From the IMG/VR virus record IMGVR_UViG_3300035696_001163: a DNA stretch of 10,234 nt. One strand, given 5' to 3'. This document shows, piece by piece, positions 873 to 10,234 of this stretch (the first letter of the stretch is position 1; the number at the start of each line of letters is the position of its first letter). The position numbers and the translations under genes were made by a program. The stretch comes from a virus. Below the pieces are notes generated by a model. That model was not told the DNA's origin. It searched no databases and worked only from the letters and a program-made list of their open reading frames with translations.

Positions 873-943
873 AGCCCCCGGTGGGATTCGAACCCACGAC
901 CTTCCCCGCGAAGGGGGACGCTCTACCGCTGAGCTACGGCCCC
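873..943 (-). tRNA. Degenerate tRNA-like gene, an Arg (UCG-like) relative and probably a pseudogene. It has no encoded CCA.
   Basis: Its reverse complement reads GGGGCCG TA GCTC AGCGGTA GAGC G TCCCC CTTCGC GGGGA AGGTC GTGGG TTCGAAT CCCAC CGGGGGC T. The D-arm and T-arm are good and identical to those of the tRNA-Arg(CCG) at 2767-2844. The anticodon loop has only 6 nt, and the acceptor stem carries three G.G mismatches (positions 2-4 against 69-71). Confidence 0.5.
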
Positions 944-1013: not shown

Positions 1014-1089
1014 TGGCAGGGGCGGAGAGATTCGAACTCTCAACTTCGGTTTTGGAGACCGCTAGTTTACCAGTTTAGCCTACGCCCCT
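1014..1089 (-). tRNA. tRNA-Trp (anticodon CCA) with CCA encoded.
   Basis: Its reverse complement reads AGGGGCG TA ... CGGT CTCCAAA ACCG ... GAGAG TTCGAAT CTCTC CGCCCCT G CCA. This is close to E. coli tRNA-Trp in its acceptor stem, anticodon loop and T-arm. The D-arm pairing is looser than usual. Confidence 0.85.
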
Positions 1090-1686
1090 AATGTCCACAA
1101 TACCCGCATGAATCTCGTCATGGCAATTGCCGCAAACGAGGACACACTTGTCTAACTCCGCCCTTAACTTTTCCCAAGATCGCGTGCTCCCAGCCCCGCT
1201 AATCGCGAACTCCTTAGTCGCCGGGTCAACGTGGTGAAACTTGAGTGCTCGGATGCACCTGTTATAGCCGCAAATTTGACACTTCCCGCCTTTGTAGTCA
1301 ACCGCTTTTTGCTTCTGCTGTTGACGCCAGTACACGATACGTGTCACATCTTTTTTCGCAGCCGCTTGTTTTCGTCTTAAAGCGTCCGCAGCCTTGCACT
1401 TGATTGAACACCACTTGCGCCCTATCTTGACCGGAGTACCGCATTCATCACATTCGCCTTCCGGCCTTCGCTTTGGATACAGCCGATTGTTGTGCGCGGC
1501 TGCGCATCCGTGGCTACAAAATCGTCTCCGTCTGACAGTGCCGGGCTTTTCAGCCTCTTTCGGTAATATCGCTTTGCCGCAATGCCTACAGCGTGCTGGG
1601 TTCAACAAATACGCAGCGACCGCCGCTTCGTGTTCCTGTTTGCCCTTGATTAAGGCCGCCGCTTGTTTCTTGGGGTAGCGAATCAT
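1075..1686 (-). CDS. HNH homing endonuclease of 203 aa, with N-terminal CxxC zinc-finger-like modules.
   Basis: ATG at 1686. The C-terminus carries a classic HNH motif, CQICGY..LKFHHVDP..N..LVCGNCHDEIH. The last 15 nt including the TAA stop lie inside the 5' part of tRNA-Trp. The conserved 11-mer starts 5 nt upstream of the ATG. Confidence 0.8.
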   Translation of the reverse strand: MIRYPKKQAAALIKGKQEHEAAVAAYLLNPARCRHCGKAILPKEAEKPGTVRRRRFCSHGCAAAHNNRLYPKRRPEGECDECGTPVKIGRKWCSIKCKAADALRRKQAAAKKDVTRIVYWRQQQKQKAVDYKGGKCQICGYNRCIRALKFHHVDPATKEFAISGAGSTRSWEKLRAELDKCVLVCGNCHDEIHAGIVDIRGVG

Positions 1687-1691
1687 GTAGG

Positions 1692-1702
1692 TTTAATACT
1701 GC
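1692..1702 (-). promoter_or_regulatory. Conserved 11-mer GCAGTATTAAA (minus sense) 5 nt upstream of the HNH 1075..1686 ATG. An identical second copy lies at 2547..2557 upstream of HNH 2095..2541.
   Basis: There is an exact 11/11 match at equivalent positions: tRNA 3' end, then about 25-30 nt, then the motif, then 5 nt, then ATG. The two HNH proteins are otherwise unrelated at their N-termini. The AT-rich TATTAAA core looks like a phage -10 box. Confidence 0.45.
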
Positions 1703-1727
1703 AAAACCCAGAAACACTACCCCTTAA

Positions 1728-1817
1728 TGGCTGTGGGGGCAGGACTCGAACCTGCGACGGAGGTTACCCTCTCCCGATTAACAGTCAGGCCCCTGCTACC
1801 AACTCGGGTACCCCACA
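1728..1817 (-). tRNA. 90-nt type-II tRNA with a long variable arm. The scaffold is Tyr-like but the anticodon is GUU (Asn) and the discriminator is G73. CCA is encoded.
   Basis: Its reverse complement reads TGTGGGG TA CCC GAGTTGGTAGCA GGG G CCTGA CTGTTAA TCGGG AGAGGGTAACCTCCGTC GCAGG TTCGAGT CCTGC CCCCACA G CCA. Every stem pairs. The acceptor stem, the CCCGAG D-arm and the 3' CCCCCAC resemble bacterial tRNA-Tyr, but loop position 36 is U, which gives GUU. Confidence 0.75.
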
Positions 1818-1822
1818 AAAAT

Positions 1823-1897
1823 TGGCTGTGATCCTAGGATTCGAACCTAGACCTCCGATCTTAACAGGATCGCGCTCTGCCGTTAAGCTAGATCACA
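1823..1897 (-). tRNA. Canonical 75-nt tRNA-Asn (anticodon GUU) with CCA encoded.
   Basis: Its reverse complement reads TGTGATC TA GCTT AACGGCA GAGC G CGATC CTGTTAA GATCG GAGGT CTAGG TTCGAAT CCTAG GATCACA G CCA. It is a perfect cloverleaf. Confidence 0.9.
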
Positions 1898-2087
1898 ATT
1901 TCGTAAATCCCGCCTTGCAAAAGCCGCAATCGCAGCCCGGCACGTGCACGGTGGAACCCCGCTTCTCGGCCGCCCGCGCCCTCTCCGGGCAAACGCCGGG
2001 GTAGCCTTCCCACCTGTCGCAAGCCTTGCCAATTGGCTTGCCGCATTTCGGACACGGTATCGCAACGAGTTGATCTATCGTCATCAT
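1893..2087 (-). CDS. Possible small zinc-ribbon protein of 64 aa, MMTIDQLVAIPCPKCGKPIGKAC...CDCGFCKAGFTKL.
   Basis: ATG at 2087 lies 7 nt downstream of the stop of HNH gene 2095..2541. CxxC...CxC pairs are present. Its 3' end overlaps tRNA-Asn by 5 nt. The longer track ORF 1893..2324 overlaps the HNH gene and its upstream part is probably not coding. Confidence 0.35.
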   Translation of the reverse strand: MMTIDQLVAIPCPKCGKPIGKACDRWEGYPGVCPERARAAEKRGSTVHVPGCDCGFCKAGFTKL

Positions 2088-2094
2088 AATCTTT

Positions 2095-2541
2095 TCACTT
2101 GCGCTTTTTGAACCCCCAAGTGTCAGTCTGTGTATGGCAATTGGGGCAAACTTTCCACAAGTTCTCTCGACGATTATCCCGCCTATTTCCGTTCCTATGG
2201 TCGATTTGGAACCTAAGCGGTTTGCCATTCCAAATCGGGCCTTGTCCACAAGCTTCACAACGATTTTCAGTTCGGTCATAGTAACGGCGTTTCGCCACAG
2301 TTGTATGCGGCGAACCAAGCGCAAAAACCTGTTCTTCAGGCAACGAAAGCAGCAGTCCAGAGGCGGCGCAACCCAGAAAATGTTCCGTGTTCAATTCCAG
2401 TTTAGCGACCCACCGTTGAACCTGTCCGCTAGTTCGTACGTTGAGCTTACGACAAACTTCCGACCAAGAAAATGAAGTTCGTACAACTTCCGGTAACTCG
2501 GTCAAGTTCCACTTTCTCGGCTTGTGGAGGCCCTTACCCAT
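2095..2541 (-). CDS. HNH homing endonuclease of 148 aa.
   Basis: ATG at 2541. The HNH motif is CEACG..RFQIDHRNGNRRDNRRENLWKVCPNCH. The same 11-mer GCAGTATTAAA lies 5 nt upstream of the ATG. Within the cluster the gene sits directly downstream of a tRNA 3' end, as does HNH 1075..1686. Confidence 0.8.
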   Translation of the reverse strand: MGKGLHKPRKWNLTELPEVVRTSFSWSEVCRKLNVRTSGQVQRWVAKLELNTEHFLGCAASGLLLSLPEEQVFALGSPHTTVAKRRYYDRTENRCEACGQGPIWNGKPLRFQIDHRNGNRRDNRRENLWKVCPNCHTQTDTWGFKKRK

Positions 2542-2589
2542 GCCTATTTAATACTGCTTCCGCACACAAAACAGGCGTTTTACTATTTA

Positions 2590-2675
2590 TGGCTGGGAAG
2601 GAGAGACTTGAACTCTCAATGAGCCGAAGCTCGACGGGGTCAGAGCCCGTTGGGGTTACATTTTCCTACTTCCCA
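2590..2675 (-). tRNA. 86-nt tRNA-like gene of type-II architecture. Anticodon CUG (Gln), discriminator G73, CCA encoded, D-stem almost unpaired. Function is uncertain.
   Basis: Its reverse complement reads TGGGAAG TA GGAAAATGTAACCCC A ACGGG CTCTGAC CCCGT CGAGCTTCGGCTCATT GAGAG TTCAAGT CTCTC CTTCCCA G CCA. The acceptor stem, anticodon stem, T-arm and a 4-5 bp variable stem closed by a TTCG tetraloop are all good. The D-arm offers only 2-3 possible pairs. Confidence 0.5.
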
Positions 2676-2678
2676 AAC

Positions 2679-2756
2679 TGGCACCCACGGCAGGGTTCGA
2701 ACCTGCGACCTCCTGATTCGTAGTCAGGCGCTCTGGTTCCGCTGAGCTACGCGGGC
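2679..2756 (-). tRNA. 78-nt tRNA-Arg (anticodon ACG) with CCA encoded.
   Basis: Its reverse complement reads GCCCGCG TA GCTC AGCGGAACCA GAGC G CCTGA CTACGAA TCAGG AGGTC GCAGG TTCGAAC CCTGC CGTGGGT G CCA. The acceptor stem includes two G.U pairs. Confidence 0.85.
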
Positions 2757-2766
2757 GTAAAATTTA

Positions 2767-2844
2767 TGGCGACCCCGGTGGGATTCGAACCCACGACCTC
2801 TGGTTCCGGAGACCAGCGCTCTAATTCCGCTGAGCTACGGGGTC
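2767..2844 (-). tRNA. 78-nt tRNA-Arg (anticodon CCG) with CCA encoded.
   Basis: Its reverse complement reads GACCCCG TA GCTC AGCGGAATTA GAGC G CTGGT CTCCGGA ACCAG AGGTC GTGGG TTCGAAT CCCAC CGGGGTC G CCA. The anticodon loop matches that of E. coli Arg-CCG. Confidence 0.9.
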
Positions 2845-2857
2845 CCTACACAAAACT

Positions 2858-2934
2858 TGGGGTGAGGGAGGGGACTCGAACCCCCAACTACAGGAGCCAC
2901 AATCCTGCGTTCTACCAATTGAACTACCCTCACC
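2858..2934 (-). tRNA. tRNA-His (anticodon GUG) with a genome-encoded G-1 paired to C73. CCA is encoded.
   Basis: Its reverse complement reads G GTGAGGG TA GTTC AATTGGTA GAAC G CAGGA TTGTGGC TCCTG TAGTT GGGGG TTCGAGT CCCCT CCCTCAC C CCA. The extra 5' G opposite C73 is the hallmark of His. Confidence 0.9.
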
Positions 2935-3081: not shown

Positions 3082-3119
3082 CTAAAAAGCCAAAACCCGC
3101 TAGGCGTTTCGCCAGCGGG
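3082..3119 (-). terminator. Rho-independent terminator closing the upstream minus-strand operon, just before the tRNA array.
   Basis: On the minus strand a GC-rich stem (CCCGCUGGCG / CGCCUAGCGGG with one bulge and an AAA loop) is followed by UUUUGGCUUUUUAG. Confidence 0.55.
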
Positions 3120-3318
3120 TCTGTTCAATCTTGTTTTGGGGTTTATTTCTTAACGACCGCCCCCTCCACCGGAGAACAGACCTTGGCCCGAATGGCGATT
3201 CCGCCACTGCTTTCGGGTCGTCGGATTGGATTTCCTGAATGTCATGTTCTTCCTTCTCTATCAATATACCACGAATTTCACTTTTTGGGTAGTTCGCGGG
3301 GAATTATTTTTAGCGGGC

Positions 3319-5114: not shown

Positions 5115-5483
5115 TTAAATCCTCATCATTTCTGCACATTTTCTGGCGTTGTAATCTTCCCGCTGTTTGCGGGACTCTTCTTCGAACGGCCGCAACAAAT
5201 CGTCCACCACTTCTTGCTTCCCCCGGAGCCGCTGAATCTGGGAGTCTAGTTCTCGTAGCTTTTTCTCGTTATCGTGGTCATCGGTGATTCCTCCGGAAAA
5301 GCCGCAATTGAGGCTGCACTCTTCTTTGTGCAACCTATGCATCTGTTCCGTCAAGGTCGAACGTAGCCCCAATAGCGTTGGAAGAATACGGGCTAGAAGC
5401 GCATTCGAAGGCACGTATTTGAACTGGTCGCTCATTGGTAGATCACCTGTCCGAAAGGTCTTTTCCGCACCCACTTGATCCAC
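5115..5483 (-). CDS. Hypothetical protein. The likely start is ATG 5435, giving 106 aa (MSDQFKYVPSN...).
   Basis: ATG 5435..5433 forms an ATGA overlap with the TGA stop of the upstream HNH gene. The track start at 5483 would overlap the HNH gene by 52 nt. Confidence 0.55.
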   Translation of the reverse strand: MDQVGAEKTFRTGDLPMSDQFKYVPSNALLARILPTLLGLRSTLTEQMHRLHKEECSLNCGFSGGITDDHDNEKKLRELDSQIQRLRGKQEVVDDLLRPFEEESRKQREDYNARKCAEMMRI

Positions 5484-5761
5484 TTTTGGACCTCGGGGTG
5501 CGCTTTCAGCTTCTCTATCGTATTATACTCCTGTTCCAACTCCTTCTCGGTGAAAAGTGAGTGCAACTGGCTATGGCATGGGCGACAGGTATCAGCTTGC
5601 TTGTGCCGTTCATTCCCTAAGTCTCGTTTGATGCGCTTGTTGTGCCGCATGCGGGGCACGAGATGGTGTCCGGTGAGCGCCATATTCCCTCGCTCGCAAA
5701 GCTCACATGTGCCAATGACGGAATTAGCTGGTACTTTCATCCGTGGATTCCCATTCCACAT
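5432..5761 (-). CDS. Small HNH endonuclease of 109 aa.
   Basis: ATG at 5761. The HNH motif is CELCE...LTGHHLVPR...N...CRPCHSQLH. Confidence 0.75.
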   Translation of the reverse strand: MWNGNPRMKVPANSVIGTCELCERGNMALTGHHLVPRMRHNKRIKRDLGNERHKQADTCRPCHSQLHSLFTEKELEQEYNTIEKLKAHPEVQKWIKWVRKRPFGQVIYQ

Positions 5762-5999
5762 CTACGGGTAGACCGGGAGCAAGACGGTCTGCATTTGAGC
5801 AAGCCTCAACTCCGTTCATTAAAATATCGTAATGTTCGGCACAAACGTAAAGATGCCTTCCGTCCGTTAGAGTAATAAAATCAATAGCGGGGCGACCACA
5901 GGTTTCCTCCGTTGGAGCGGCGAACGTAATCGGGAAACCGCGACAAGAGTCGAGCACTTCGCATTCATGCCTCATAAAAAGGCCCAGTACTCGTCCCAA
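5724..5999 (-). CDS. Small Cys protein. It is paralog 2 of a tandem pair sharing a CG.PA.DFI...LY.CA.H.D motif. The likely start is ATG 5975, giving 83 aa.
   Basis: ATG 5975..5973 forms an ATGA overlap with the upstream paralog's stop. The motif MR..C..L...AP..E..CG.PAIDFI...LYVCAEHYD is shared with gene 5972..6157. Confidence 0.55.
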   Translation of the reverse strand: MGRVLGLFMRHECEVLDSCRGFPITFAAPTEETCGRPAIDFITLTDGRHLYVCAEHYDILMNGVEACSNADRLAPGLPVDVEWESTDESTS

Positions 6000-6157
6000 T
6001 GCTTGGCGCAGAGGTAGATTTTGTCCGTATCCCCGTTTTTACGCACCCATGGTATAAAGTCCACGGCGGGAAGTCCACACAAGGAGTCTTCGTCAGCTTC
6101 CGGGGCAAGCATACACCCCGCTGTAAAGTCCCTTAACGCCATACAGGTACCTCTCAT
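5972..6157 (-). CDS. Small Cys protein of 61 aa. It is paralog 1 of the tandem pair (..CGLPAVDFI...IYLCAKHWDEY).
   Basis: ATG 6157 forms an ATGA overlap with the stop of the nucleotidyltransferase gene. Paralogy is visible at protein level. Confidence 0.55.
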   Translation of the reverse strand: MRGTCMALRDFTAGCMLAPEADEDSLCGLPAVDFIPWVRKNGDTDKIYLCAKHWDEYWAFL

Positions 6158-7107
6158 GACTGCCAGTGCTCCGTATACGCAGCCGCGACTAGCTGGGATA
6201 TCGCAGACCTGTCTGGGCGTTCGGGCAGCTTAGAAGCCAACCGGGCGCTTTCTAGCAGGGCAAAGCGTTCCCTCGCTATACGCTCAATCTCAGCAAGCGG
6301 TTGGACCTTACCCAATCGAATATCAATCAGGAAGTCCTTTTCCGGACGTGGGAGCGTGATTCGGCCTTCCTGCATCAGCTCAATACCCTCGCCAAGCACC
6401 CTGATCAAATGCATCGCCGCTTTGGTGTCGTAACCATGTTCGTGAATCAGGTCCCAGCGCTGCCCTCGCTTGCCTACGCCTTCGCCTTTGAGTGTACGGA
6501 GCATGTGCTCCGAAAACTTCAGATAATGGTACCCGGCGTGACTACACAGGAATACGTGTCGGTGGGCGTGAACAAATCTTTGCCACGAATCGGGGTGAAG
6601 TGCCATGTTTGGGGCAAACAAATAGTGCATGGCATCGGGGTTGCCCGTGCACACCATCCCCGCCCACTTGCGCAGGGAGTACAGTGTCAGGTCAATGTCA
6701 TCAGGCCCGTTGCGTCGGTCATTTCCCGCCGTGCTCCATTTGAAAAGTTCCGGCTGTCTGGCACGCTCCTGACCGTTAGGCAGGGTGTCGTACTCGGTAA
6801 CGCCAAGTGCCGCGTGCGGAGGCGGGATGTAGATGCCGAACAGGTCGAGGTCTTCTTTCCCGTCCAGCGAGGCACCGTGAGCGCCGGAGCCGCCAATGAA
6901 CAAGTGAATGATTTCATCGGCCCACGTAAAGCCGGTCTGCTTGATGGCTGCGTAAATCGCGTTTACGTCGGTTGTTTTAACAATCTCCATAAATTCCACA
7001 ACGACAGAACCAGAAAGACACCTGTCATGAAGGTGTAGTCTATCCGGTGTAGCGTGTATATATTCACCCAAAGATAGATAGCGTTCCCCGCAACACTGAG
7101 TCCCCAC
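6154..7107 (-). CDS. Pol-beta-fold nucleotidyltransferase. The family is unresolved among MNT, AbiEii and CD-NTase-like groups. The likely start is ATG 6990, giving about 278 aa.
   Basis: The sequence IGGSGAHGASLDGKEDLDLFGIY matches hG[GS]-x9-13-Dh[DE]h, and a later DDIDLTLY strand supplies a third carboxylate. Roughly 180 aa follow the nucleotidyltransferase core. The track start GTG 7107 overlaps the membrane-protein gene by 145 nt. Confidence 0.65.
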   Translation of the reverse strand: MGTQCCGERYLSLGEYIHATPDRLHLHDRCLSGSVVVEFMEIVKTTDVNAIYAAIKQTGFTWADEIIHLFIGGSGAHGASLDGKEDLDLFGIYIPPPHAALGVTEYDTLPNGQERARQPELFKWSTAGNDRRNGPDDIDLTLYSLRKWAGMVCTGNPDAMHYLFAPNMALHPDSWQRFVHAHRHVFLCSHAGYHYLKFSEHMLRTLKGEGVGKRGQRWDLIHEHGYDTKAAMHLIRVLGEGIELMQEGRITLPRPEKDFLIDIRLGKVQPLAEIERIARERFALLESARLASKLPERPDRSAISQLVAAAYTEHWQS

Positions 7108-7247
7108 CCCGTACGCGGGTATTTATGCAGCAGGGCGTAGCAGGCGATCAAGCAGGCGTTGGCGATCCAAACTACCACGAGTTCACGAATCGGATGATCT
7201 TGATGTCTTCCGGCAGCTTGCGCAGATCGACCTCGTAGCCTGTACAC
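6963..7247 (-). CDS. Small integral membrane protein with about three predicted transmembrane helices.
   Basis: Hydrophobic stretches are LVVVWIANACLIACYALL, WGLSVAGNAIYLWVNIYTL and FMTGVFLVLSLWNLW. The track start is GTG 7247. An alternative GTG at 7178 lies 1 nt after the upstream TAG. Confidence 0.5.
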   Translation of the reverse strand: MYRLRGRSAQAAGRHQDHPIRELVVVWIANACLIACYALLHKYPRTGWGLSVAGNAIYLWVNIYTLHRIDYTFMTGVFLVLSLWNLWRLLKQPT

Positions 7248-7468: not shown

Positions 7469-7644
7469 TACGCTTTTTCCTTTCCAAGAAATACTTGTTC
7501 AAATTTTTGCGATATAACGAAAGCAACTTGCTTTGCAATTACCTTGCAGGCCGCGCAATCACGAAACTTTTCAATCGGTAAGTTTATCGTGCAACCAAAA
7601 CTGTGATTGTGGATTACTTCCGTAATTTCTTCTAACAGGGTCAT
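7468..7644 (-). CDS. Small protein of 58 aa, MTLLEEITEVIHNHSFGCTINLPIEKFRDCAACKVIAKQVAFVISQKFEQVFLGKEKA. It is below the ORF-track length threshold.
   Basis: Translated by hand. ATG 7644..7642 forms an ATGA overlap with the upstream TGA. Its TAA shares a nucleotide with the downstream ATG. It fills an otherwise unexplained 172-nt gap in a tightly packed operon. Confidence 0.45.
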   Translation of the reverse strand: MTLLEEITEVIHNHSFGCTINLPIEKFRDCAACKVIAKQVAFVISQKFEQVFLGKEKA

Positions 7645-8132
7645 GGTGCTCCCTCAAGTTTCACATCTCTGGCATCGTAATACTGTTTGCGGGCAGCTTC
7701 AATGGTATTCCGCCATTGCGTTCTCTCGGCATCCGTGCGAACGAAAATTTCAATGAAGTCGCAAACAGTTCGAGGTATACCGGCGACACCGGCGGTCTCC
7801 ATCGGCACGTTGCGGCGGAAATGAATCGCCGCTGATGTGCCGAGCCTAACGTCATAGGTCGTGACTTTGACATTGAAGATGCTTGTGCAGTAAAGTTCGC
7901 CTTCTACCTCCGGCGCTGGAAGCGTGGAAACGCAAACATCGTGCTCGTTACCATAATTGCGCAGAAAAGCAGATTCAAGGTAGGCTGTCGCCGTCTCGCT
8001 CTGTGGATGTTCCCGTAAGTGTTTTATCCGTGTCAGGGCGGTAAAGATCATTACACAAGCAACCACCATAATTGCGATCCCTATCCATATCCCCGGATAA
8101 GCCAGTATGTCCCGTTTTAGATCATCCAGCAT
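7641..8132 (-). CDS. Membrane-anchored protein of 163 aa with one N-terminal transmembrane helix and a soluble C-terminal domain.
   Basis: ATG 8132 is preceded by GGAGG 6 nt upstream. The transmembrane helix is PGIWIGIAIMVVACVMIFTAL. The gene overlaps the 3' end of the HNH gene by 11 nt. Confidence 0.65.
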   Translation of the reverse strand: MLDDLKRDILAYPGIWIGIAIMVVACVMIFTALTRIKHLREHPQSETATAYLESAFLRNYGNEHDVCVSTLPAPEVEGELYCTSIFNVKVTTYDVRLGTSAAIHFRRNVPMETAGVAGIPRTVCDFIEIFVRTDAERTQWRNTIEAARKQYYDARDVKLEGAP

Positions 8133-8676
8133 ACGCCGCCTCCGCCTTTTCGATTTCCGGCTGCTTCCAAAACAGCAAGAACATCTGCGTGCTGTTCCCT
8201 TTCTCAGTGTTACAAGTCATGCACATTGTGCACAGGTTGGATAAATCGTTACCGCCGCCTTTGGACTTGGGAAGCACGTGATCCTTCGTCAGCATGACCT
8301 CTTTGCCGTTTTGAAGCCCGTACAGGTTGAAGTGCCATGTCCTCCCCGTGCCCCTGAATGATGTTTCAAACTTGCCGCCCTTTAACTGCTTCCGAACTTT
8401 CTTGGCTGAACGCTCCTTGGCAAAGTACATTCCGGTGATTCCACACCGGACGCATACTAGGGATTCGCGGAACACCTGATACCTATCGGATGTGATTTTG
8501 ATGAAGTCGCCGTCGAATTCAGCCCACGAATTACCGATCTGCGTGAATACCTCATCCAGAGTATAAATGCCGTTACGTTCATAGCCCGGGTGGAAGCCCC
8601 GGACAAGAACACCTTGAGGGACCTGATCGTCAGGGATCATACCCGTATTAGATGCCGTGGAAAAGAAAAAGGCCAC
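8122..8676 (-). CDS. HNH endonuclease of the DH..N..N type.
   Basis: The motif is CVRCG...HFNLYG...LTKDHVLPKSKGGGNDLSNLCTMCMTCNTEKG. The track start is GTG 8676. An alternative ATG lies at 8640. Confidence 0.75.
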   Translation of the reverse strand: MAFFFSTASNTGMIPDDQVPQGVLVRGFHPGYERNGIYTLDEVFTQIGNSWAEFDGDFIKITSDRYQVFRESLVCVRCGITGMYFAKERSAKKVRKQLKGGKFETSFRGTGRTWHFNLYGLQNGKEVMLTKDHVLPKSKGGGNDLSNLCTMCMTCNTEKGNSTQMFLLFWKQPEIEKAEAAYAG

Positions 8677-8721: not shown

Positions 8722-10234
8722 TTAGTTACCTACTTTTGCGGGCTTCGCTTGGATATTGCTCAGGATAGTCTCCAAGGCGGTTCCCTTGAACAACCTTTCC
8801 AGTGAGGTTCCAAGTCCAGTCTGTTCATGCAAAGCGAGCGGGGCAACGGCGGTAGCCAGCTTGGTAGCAAACTCCGTCTGTCCCAGCGTGAGCATGGCGG
8901 CTATGAGGTCAGGCGTAATCGCCTTGATCTTCGCCTCGAAGAACTCGACACGCTTCTCCTCGACTGTCAACGTGTAGTCTTCGCCAGCCTTACGACGGTT
9001 TAGCTCGGCTGTGGCAACTGCATCATGCAGCTTTTGCTGGTCGGCTTCGGCCGTCAAGCTGCTGACCGTTTCGGCGATCTCCGCTTGCAACTTCTCCATG
9101 GCTACGTCGGCCCGCTTGGCGTTCAGTTCGGCTTCCAGTTCAAGCTTCTTGATTGCCAAGTCGTTCTCCAGTACCGCTGCTTGCTCCTGAACTTCGACTG
9201 TACGCTTGGTAATGTCGAGGTTCTGCTCGGCGGCGGACAGGGAGATAACGCCTTCGACTGCCTTCTGCTGGGCATTCTTGAGCATCGTGGAGATACGTTC
9301 ATCGGCGATCTTGACATCCAATACTTCAACGTCATAGACCTCCATGCCGTTCTCCGGGAACGGATGAGCCCGACGCTTCCCATCCACCTTCGTGCCGAGG
9401 ATAGTGTCACGGACCTGAGCGGTTGAATCCTCGATGAATTCCTTGATCGACAACTTCTTGACCGCACCTTTGAGAAGTGACCGCATGTGGTCGCACAGGA
9501 ATTTAACGTAGTTCTCGACGGAAAACCACTTGTCCTGAGCTTCCCGAAGGAAGTTAACGCGGTAGGACAACTTTATCTCCACGTTCACAAGGTCTTTCGT
9601 TTCGACCCGGACGATGTCGGATACGACGTTGTTGTCTACGCGCAAGTACACGTCGTGAATCAACTTGTCGGTCGTCTTCGGCTTTCCGGTCGAAAGTTCA
9701 AGAACGGCGAGCGTTTCGTCGTACTTCAGCAGGATGGTTGCCGGTCCAACTACTACACGCCGCCCACCCTTTTTGTCAACGATTTGAACGGCGTAGCCGA
9801 CATAAGGACTGATAGTCGGCACCCCATCGTACTTCGTATTCAGGGTAAGCATCGGCGGTGGGGTGAACTGCGTGCCCCGGTTCAGCTTATCGCCTTCGAA
9901 TGACGCACTGGCGGCTAGTGCTCGACTTCCCGCTGTGCCTCGATTAACGGAGCGGAGAACATCCACGGAAGCTGCCTTAACGGTAGCGTCATAGACATAG
10001 TTGTCGGCATCATTTGCCAGTGCCCGAATGCTGTCATTGAATGCCAATGCTTCGGTGTTACCCGGATACCACAGGCTAACAGTCTTGGCATCCAGCACGC
10101 GGCGGATGATGACTTGAAAACGCGGATCGGGCAGGAAAATCTGTGGACCTTCCACGGTCTCCACATCGCCTATGTTCTTGTCGAGAACATAGCGGCCTTC
10201 GCCCGTGGGGATCGCAATTCCGTAGTAGCGCTGG
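8722..10234 (-). CDS. Large SPFH/band-7-like protein with a beta-rich N-terminal region and a long C-terminal coiled coil. The architecture is flotillin-like or vault-shoulder-like. The CDS is 5'-partial.
   Basis: The frame is open through the right edge; the track's M at 10164 is a GTG inside a longer open frame. An SPFH-like core (..VETKDLVNVEIKLSYRVNF..VYDVEVLDVKIADERISTMLKNAQ) is followed by about 150 aa of heptad-like E/A/K/L-rich sequence. TAA at 8724..8722. Confidence 0.7.
   Translation of the reverse strand, partial: QRYYGIAIPTGEGRYVLDKNIGDVETVEGPQIFLPDPRFQVIIRRVLDAKTVSLWYPGNTEALAFNDSIRALANDADNYVYDATVKAASVDVLRSVNRGTAGSRALAASASFEGDKLNRGTQFTPPPMLTLNTKYDGVPTISPYVGYAVQIVDKKGGRRVVVGPATILLKYDETLAVLELSTGKPKTTDKLIHDVYLRVDNNVVSDIVRVETKDLVNVEIKLSYRVNFLREAQDKWFSVENYVKFLCDHMRSLLKGAVKKLSIKEFIEDSTAQVRDTILGTKVDGKRRAHPFPENGMEVYDVEVLDVKIADERISTMLKNAQQKAVEGVISLSAAEQNLDITKRTVEVQEQAAVLENDLAIKKLELEAELNAKRADVAMEKLQAEIAETVSSLTAEADQQKLHDAVATAELNRRKAGEDYTLTVEEKRVEFFEAKIKAITPDLIAAMLTLGQTEFATKLATAVAPLALHEQTGLGTSLERLFKGTALETILSNIQAKPAKVGN

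Follow-up and report, generated by a model that had tools for sequence, protein, structure and literature searches.

RlaP (PF10127) is a family of nucleotidyltransferases (NTases) named by Burroughs and Aravind in a comparative-genomic study of 2016, in which its genes were found to share operons with RNA ligase genes (as related in PMC12776372 and PMC7824862). In a 2021 survey RlaP was recognized as the most prevalent repair NTase of jumbo phages, its distribution mirroring that of RNA ligases, and was predicted to refill, prior to ligation, the nucleotides taken off by nucleases such as RloC (PMC7824862). The first biochemistry of the family came in a December 2025 preprint on the Pseudomonas enzymes, which add one or two nucleoside monophosphates (NMPs) from any nucleoside triphosphate (NTP), or from dATP, to the 3'-OH of RNA, are inactive on DNA and protein, prefer Mn2+, and favour the 5' half of a cleaved-tRNA mimic; RlaP also rescued the aminoacylation of a tRNA without one anticodon-loop nucleotide, and PfRlaP labelled full-length tRNAs in total E. 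coli RNA (PMC12776372). In the crystal structure of PfRlaP an NTase domain is followed by a helical domain and by a C-terminal helix that packs back onto the NTase domain; in the same work NrdC.11 of phage T4 was assigned to cluster 5 of the RlaP sequence similarity network (SSN), and the question of how RlaP products are channelled into repair was left as an open problem (PMC12776372). Described here is a phage gene whose product, judged by its sequence, is almost certainly an ordinary member of this family. It lies on the minus strand of a 10,234-nt stretch of the IMG/VR virus record IMGVR_UViG_3300035696_001163, the whole of which is referred to below as the window. The window is phage-like: its credible genes all run on the minus strand, it has three scattered HNH endonuclease genes, and seven tRNA genes are present.

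Family assignment, active site and fold

The gene and the features of its product are listed below; residue numbers refer to the 278-amino-acid (aa) form that starts at ATG 6990.

6154..6990, minus strand: predicted coding sequence (CDS) of an RlaP-family (PF10127) Pol-beta nucleotidyltransferase, ATG 6990 to TGA 6154, 278 aa
6844..6897, minus strand: active-site motif I32-G33-G34-S35-x11-D47-L48-D49, read from the sequence
6691..6702, minus strand: region of the third catalytic carboxylate, D97-D98-I99-D100, at the start of beta-strand 99-105 in the model
6154..6675, minus strand: C-terminal all-helical domain, residues ~106-278, according to the predicted model

The open reading frame (ORF) is real, its coding part being backed by 1347 homologues from a large protein collection. 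In the ORF list it spans 6154..7107 and would encode 317 aa if begun at GTG 7107; however, the true start is most likely ATG 6990, the codon of M40 in the longer form, and the first 39 codons are probably untranslated. Three observations agree on this Met and therefore on a CDS of 278 aa: the N-termini of the homologues line up with it in an alignment of 30 sequences, tblastn alignments to cultured phages start at residues 43-65 of the 317-aa ORF, and the gene call in the 98%-identical metagenomic fragment P0121 (1.2-kb contig L108) begins at the same codon. The codons upstream of 6990 share their DNA, in a different frame, with the preceding ORF, which encodes three transmembrane (TM) segments. 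Exact look-ups of the protein in both start forms, and of a 51-nt piece in viral and metagenome contigs, returned no match.

A Pfam scan at E ≤ 0.1 matched a single family, PF10127 RlaP, entitled 'RNA repair pathway DNA polymerase beta family', with 69.7 bits against a cutoff of 23 (E 4e-19), the match being limited to profile positions 18-176 of 249. In PHROGs, phrog_388 ('nucleotidyltransferase') was matched over the full length (E 5e-43), and scans with NCBIfam and PADLOC gave no match for the protein. The best of the 1347 homologues is 66% identical (E 4e-109), and PF10127 is present in all of the 120 best; a HMMER scan across 1.84 billion cluster representatives returned 4082 at E ≤ 1e-3. 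Among cultured phages 526 records match, with identity of up to 35% and all annotated 'nucleotidyltransferase', mostly from mycobacteriophages and T4-like coliphages, and also from Gordonia, Bacillus, and Caulobacter phages. The gene is a divergent addition to a described family, in large phages, where RlaP is already known as common.

The active site is intact, and the predicted fold is that expected of an NTase with a helical domain. The first-pass annotation, made from the letters alone, had recognized a Pol-beta-fold nucleotidyltransferase with an hG[GS]x11DxD signature, a third-strand acidic residue and a helical domain of about 180 aa, and in all of this it was right. The signature is reproduced exactly (I32-G33-G34-S35, 11 residues, D47-L48-D49), and none of G33, G34, S35, D47, and D49 varies in the alignment of 30 homologues, which are 47-63% identical. 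D98/D100, where strand 99-105 begins, supply the third acidic position; D98 shows no variation within the subfamily, at least 90% of the sequences retain D97 and D100, and the latter two align with Asp residues of T4 NrdC.11. The AlphaFold2 model built on the alignment (pLDDT 92.6, pTM 0.88) is composed of a Pol-beta-type alpha/beta NTase core (9-105), a run of helices (106-252) and a final helix (261-277), so that the helical domain comes to ~170 aa. Conserved basic residues of this domain (R107, K108, R178, K190, R197, R215, and R225) presumably line an RNA/NTP-binding cleft. Full-length structural matches among viral predicted structures are phage NTases with TM-scores of 0.70-0.77, among them gp218 of Bacillus phage G and proteins of several jumbo phages. 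Searches of PDB sequences with the protein and with the 30-sequence family profile gave no match (E ≤ 1 for the profile).

The three families proposed at first did not hold. An AbiEii-like toxin had been suggested by the likeness of EDLDLF to EDIDF, but there is no AbiEii/DUF1814 match in Pfam at E ≤ 0.1 or in PADLOC, and no AbiEi-type antitoxin partner is encoded in the window. For an MNT-type NTase, as in MNT-HEPN modules, no match to NTP_transf_2 (PF01909) was obtained in Pfam at E ≤ 0.1 and the PADLOC MNT/HEPN models were silent; the protein has 278 aa, against an expected ~100-140 aa, and its own fused helical domain, and no HEPN match was found among its neighbours with Pfam, PHROGs, or PADLOC. 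As to a minimal cGAS/DncV-like cyclase (CD-NTase), there was no SMODS or Mab-21 match in Pfam and no match to the PADLOC CBASS cyclases, and the structures of CdnC and CdnD align at a TM-score of only ~0.2. Placement among housekeeping CCA-adding enzymes or aminoglycoside NTases, named in advance as the outcome that would overturn the annotation, did not follow either: Pfam gave no PolyA_pol (PF01743) or aminoglycoside-NTase match for the protein, which also sets aside poly(A) polymerases, and the identical scan readily picked up PF01743 in an acidobacterial neighbour gene of RlaP. What the annotation had left open, a role in tRNA repair, is now backed by membership of the RlaP family (PMC7824862; PMC12776372) and by the conserved tRNA island described below. 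The novelty suggested for the gene is mostly gone, since the protein is placed confidently in an already described family.

The tRNA island and the related phage loci

Downstream of the RlaP gene lies a tRNA array, detected with ARAGORN and Rfam.

1014..2933, minus strand: tRNA genes for His, Arg(CCG), Arg(ACG), Gln, Asn, Asn, and Trp, interrupted by two HNH endonuclease genes

Nine related phage loci, in which RlaP is 47-66% identical to that of the window, were compared with it; they are designated, as are the cellular loci below, by an L and a number. Very large phage contigs, of 130, 325, 338, and 454 kb among others, are the source of the nearest relatives. Both in the window and in each of the nine loci RlaP is located 1.3-5 kb upstream of a tRNA block on the same strand, and the shared block contains tRNAs for Trp, His, two or three Arg, Gln, and two Asn, with Lys where the locus extends far enough; several of the loci carry an additional Ser/Leu tRNA block upstream. 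Across these phages the identity of RlaP falls to 47% while almost all other neighbours differ, and all-against-all clustering of the ten loci revealed no universal partner of RlaP besides an HNH endonuclease within the tRNA block. The linkage of RlaP to the tRNA island is conserved in this phage lineage, and the array likely represents the substrates or the functional context of the enzyme. Since all seven tRNA genes of the window encode the 3'-CCA, RlaP is not needed for their maturation, and repair rather than maturation is proposed as its role.

Some of the related loci carry further genes connected with RNA ends or translation. Within 10 kb of RlaP, L001 encodes an RNA ligase (PF09414, 6.3 kb downstream) together with a HAD_SAK_2 phosphatase; a HAD_SAK_2 gene is also present in L003, and KptA in L015. 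A truncated gene for a class II aminoacyl-tRNA synthetase core resembling histidyl-tRNA synthetase (HisRS; ~182 aa) lies directly upstream of RlaP in L010/L011 (9427..9972), and another HisRS-like gene is found 2.7 kb downstream of RlaP in L021 (13680..14228); the copies of these two phage lineages are 52% identical. In mycobacteriophage Phabba a gene for an RF-1-like protein is directly upstream of the RlaP homologue.

Two tRNAs of the window, tRNA-Asn(GUU) at 1728..1817 (minus strand, 90 nt) and tRNA-Gln(CUG) at 2590..2675 (minus strand, 86 nt), have long stem-forming variable arms and thus a class II shape, which is normally confined to the Leu, Ser, Tyr, and Sec tRNAs. The long tRNA-Asn(GUU) adjoins a tRNA-Asn of normal length, and long Asn and Gln tRNAs recur in L001, L003, L007, and L016; mischarging and nuclease resistance are possibilities for their purpose. 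It is also worth mentioning a tRNA-like element at 878..939 (minus strand), matched by Rfam with 47.6 bits over model positions 5-66 and not called by ARAGORN. Its anticodon-like loop reads UCG (Arg), its acceptor stem is imperfect and CCA is not encoded; it may be a decayed tRNA-Arg(UCG), intact genes for which are present in L005 and L007.

Proposed mechanism and alternatives

That the enzyme acts in tRNA repair of one kind or another is very probable, and that its chemistry is the template-independent nucleotidyl transfer to RNA 3' ends known from the family is also probable, by analogy with the characterised members. The loop G34-S35 and the carboxylates D47, D49, and D100 would hold two divalent ions, probably Mn2+, and a damaged RNA with a free 3'-OH would receive one or two NMPs, for which any NTP could serve as donor. 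The phage would be a large one, with its own tRNA island, and its host group is probably Acidobacteriota, as the closest cellular homologues of RlaP are acidobacterial. In such a host, anticodon nucleases (RloC-type 'cut and excise' ribotoxins) would cut and trim tRNAs, RlaP would restore the lost nucleotides, and an RNA ligase, from another part of the phage genome or from the host, would reseal a functional tRNA, so that RlaP would work as a counter-defence enzyme alongside the phage tRNAs. The addition of NMPs, the dependence on Mn2+ and the preference for cleaved tRNA are carried over from the Pseudomonas orthologues, and what RlaP acts on in vivo, and that a ligase is its partner, is inferred. 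Anticodon-loop repair in phage counter-defence is the version towards which the evidence leans, because of the in vitro substrate preference of the family and because ligase, phosphatase, and KptA genes occur in some of the relatives.

Several points weigh against this version. Among the genes of the 10-kb window no RNA ligase, polynucleotide kinase or phosphatase was found with Pfam, PHROGs, or NCBIfam, and an RNA ligase lies within 10 kb of RlaP in just one of the nine related phage loci; none was seen near RlaP in the three acidobacterial loci with Pfam annotation, and many acidobacterial RlaP genes adjoin the gene of a CCA-adding enzyme instead. Synteny within one phage lineage can reflect shared ancestry and not shared function. 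The C-terminal domain, left out of the Pfam match, diverges from the PF10127 consensus, and the characterised RlaPs are Pseudomonas proteins of a different SSN cluster, with no phage RlaP among them.

The acidobacterial loci are the source of the strongest alternative. The closest cellular relatives of the phage protein come from 80 loci (41-49% identity), nearly all of them in Acidobacteriota, mainly Terriglobia. The gene for the CCA-adding enzyme (cca; domains PolyA_pol, PolyA_pol_RNAbd, tRNA_NucTran2_2, and HD) is the next same-strand gene after RlaP in 31 of the 77 acidobacterial loci with enough downstream sequence, with a median gap of 35 nt, and lies within 2.8 kb in 13 more (44/77 together). 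Upstream, tsaD is divergently oriented in 40 of the 72 loci counted for it, and gatC and gatA follow downstream. The order iscS - rrf2 - (response regulator) - tsaD <> rlaP - cca - ... - gatC - gatA, seen in loci L028-L107, is kept in roughly half of the 80 Terriglobia species. The acidobacterial rlaP thus sits in a housekeeping tRNA-processing neighbourhood. The adjacency of cca and RlaP is mentioned in neither PMC12776372 nor PMC7824862, and the family-defining paper of 2016 may already note the link.

These data allow the same chemistry to be placed at the acceptor end of the tRNA: RlaP would re-add the discriminator or other nucleotides lost to exonucleases or toxins, after which a CCA-adding enzyme would rebuild the CCA, no ligase being involved; in another form RlaP would patch partial CCA ends directly. 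The phage and acidobacterial clade would then be a ligase-independent branch of the family, a possibility held here only tentatively. It draws its appeal from the order of genes in Acidobacteriota and from the lack of ligases in the neighbourhood of the subfamily, and it agrees with the labelling of full-length tRNAs by PfRlaP (PMC12776372) and with the constant location of the phage copies within tRNA islands. However, in a neighbour-joining tree the phage RlaPs form one clade and the cca-linked proteins another, ~47% identical, and the phage clade stands beside acidobacterial proteins not linked to cca; no cca-like gene occurs within 10 kb of RlaP in any phage locus, and gene order within a single class, Terriglobia, may be plain inheritance. 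In addition, when given a cleaved-tRNA mimic in vitro, the characterised RlaP prefers the break in the anticodon loop to the acceptor end (PMC12776372), and NMP addition lacking base specificity fits poorly with the rebuilding of a defined acceptor end. If the acceptor-end version were true, large soil phages would have taken such an RlaP into their tRNA islands against host nucleases trimming tRNA 3' ends. The linkage of the acidobacterial orthologues to cca in any case suggests a testable variant of RlaP, engaged in acceptor-end instead of anticodon-loop repair, which bears on the problem of channelling RlaP products into repair raised in the preprint.

MenT and AbiEii toxins tail the 3'-CCA of tRNAs and thereby block aminoacylation. 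A similar activity of RlaP on host tRNAs or other RNAs, shutting off the host in favour of phage-controlled translation, would be in line with the extension of intact tRNA 3' ends by RlaP in vitro (PMC12776372), with the AbiEii motif likeness pointed out in the first-pass annotation and with the large tRNA set of the phage. It is nonetheless improbable: there is no AbiEii/DUF1814 or MenT-like profile match in Pfam or PADLOC and no antitoxin-like partner, the tRNAs of the phage end in CCA too and would also be tailed, and the cellular orthologues are single-copy genes in housekeeping tRNA neighbourhoods, unexpected for a toxin.

The gene directly upstream of RlaP invites another comparison, with signal-making NTases that act with a membrane protein.

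6963..7178, minus strand: ORF of 71 aa with three TM segments, directly upstream of RlaP and overlapping its start by 28 nt

In L108 the upstream gene is likewise called as a 71-aa ORF with a 28-nt overlap, and L003/L004, L006, and L016 have homologues at the equivalent place (tblastn E 1e-8 to 1e-19), the motifs WxAN and GWxxSxxGN being kept in L003, L006, and L016. The ORF is absent from L001, L005, L007, and L015 and from all cellular loci; it is present in four of the ten related phage loci, and a pattern search of viral contigs added none. It weakly resembles the first three helices of the PnuC nicotinamide-riboside transporter (PF04973, E 0.009, in the L016 copy only) and is also weakly similar to phrog_2421; it is a lineage-restricted gene, possibly co-translated with RlaP. 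The overlap with the RlaP start, kept in four loci, recalls pairs such as HalB/HalA of Hailong or a CBASS cyclase with its effector, and RlaP might form such a pair with this protein or be a phage decoy, but this is very improbable. The family profile finds neither HalB nor a CD-NTase in the PDB at E ≤ 1, the PADLOC CBASS models give no match, and the candidate partner has only 71 aa; half of the related loci lack it, as do all cellular ones. HalB-like signalling was rejected in the same way, the likeness being at the level of the fold, with no detectable sequence relationship. Least probable of all is a small-molecule NTase of the aminoglycoside or lincosamide type: no ANT, KNTase, or LinB model matches in Pfam, the Pseudomonas RlaPs act on RNA only (PMC12776372), and a tRNA island offers no rationale for antibiotic modification.

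RlaP emerges as a fixed component of the tRNA island in a lineage of very large soil phages across ~50% protein divergence, which speaks for a joint action of phage tRNA sets and enzymes of RNA-end repair against the tRNA-cleaving defences of the host. On its own the gene is of limited importance, as one further divergent phage member of a family predicted, and partly shown, to repair RNA ends.

Neighbouring genes and comparison with known systems

The surroundings of the gene reported in the first-pass annotation, namely ORFs with three and one TM segments, paralogous small Cys proteins and a tRNA array, were all recovered. Besides those already given, the following genes adjoin RlaP or are scattered through the window.

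7641..8132: ORF with one TM segment
5972..6157 and 5724..5975, minus strand: two tandem paralogous small Cys-rich proteins (36% identity, E 2e-5)
8122..8676, 2095..2541, and 1075..1686, minus strand: three HNH endonuclease genes

The Cys-rich paralogues share the pattern CG.P..DF......Y.C..H.D, and ATGA stop/start overlaps join both genes to RlaP and to one another; similar small proteins are encoded downstream of RlaP in L016, L007, and L020. They are followed by a gene at 5432..5761 (minus strand) for a 109-aa protein of the form CxxC...HH...CxxCH with a weak HNH match (E 0.01), homologues of which are located downstream of RlaP in L020 (84% identity), L006 (69%), and L007 (61%), in the last of these directly after it. 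The three HNH genes probably encode homing endonucleases; copies of the one at 8122..8676 (HNH_5), 51-60% identical, lie just upstream of RlaP in L006, L015, and L021. Just past the tRNA array, 111..~400 (minus strand) encodes the C-terminal portion of an ATP-grasp protein of the R2K clade (PF14243 R2K_3, E 8e-10).

The gene at 8722..10164 (minus strand) encodes a 480-aa protein with Pfam matches to MVP_shoulder (E 4e-26) and Vault_3 (E 2e-9) and a long coiled-coil tail, a short, phage-encoded major vault protein (MVP) homologue; phage MVPs were reported in a 2023 preprint (10.1101/2023.11.10.566534). A 66%-identical copy is directly upstream of RlaP in L007, and 38%-identical copies are found in two uncultured phage genomes of 462 and 735 kb (LR756500 and LR756501). 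A functional link between this gene and RlaP, considered because of the adjacency in L007, was rejected, as neither RlaP nor a tRNA lies within 20 kb of it in LR756500/LR756501. Promoter and terminator scans of the window gave numbers of sites not above those in shuffled sequence; one strong terminator-like hairpin, at 3122..3093 (minus strand), separates the protein genes from the tRNA array.

Of the described systems, the RlaPs of Pseudomonas fluorescens and P. aeruginosa, whose genes lie between rtcB and rtcA (PMC12776372), are the reference for the window protein, the comparison being with their published description. They have in common PF10127, the GS, the DxD and the third Asp, the succession of NTase domain, helical domain and C-terminal helix, with the reservation that the C-terminal domain of the window protein falls outside the matched part of the Pfam profile, and, presumably, the addition of one or two NMPs to an RNA 3'-OH. 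Unlike them, the window copy is phage-encoded and stands alone within a tRNA island, with no RtcB, RtcA or other ligase gene adjacent. Among phage RlaPs, T4 NrdC.11 is related to the window protein through both of its domains (27% of 129 aa and 26% of 96 aa identical), and its gene also adjoins that of a homing HNH endonuclease, mobD; it is, however, distant, has 336 aa with an insertion, and is not encoded beside the T4 tRNA genes. Other phage relatives are the members of phrog_388, such as LeBron gp32, Phabba gp3, and gp218 of Bacillus phage G (32-35% identity over ~85% of the length, TM-score up to 0.77), which come from other phage lineages and other contexts: gp32 of mycobacteriophage LeBron is encoded near integrase and lysis genes and Phabba gp3 beside the RF-1-like gene.

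The orthologues of Acidobacteriota have the same length and the same invariant residues as the window protein, at 41-49% identity, and probably share ancestry with the phage clade, from which they differ in being chromosomal, in 44 of 77 loci upstream of cca between tsaD and gatCA, and outside tRNA arrays. The nearest solved structure is that of Hailong HalB (PDB 9dbh). HalB makes oligo-dA primed on its own tyrosine and has the large channel protein HalA as its partner, and the window protein does not belong to this system. The class II CCA-adding enzyme (PF01743), whose gene adjoins acidobacterial orthologues, is likewise a template-independent NTase repairing tRNA 3' ends; it belongs to another family with another set of domains, and the addition of CCA is defined in sequence, whereas that by RlaP is not.

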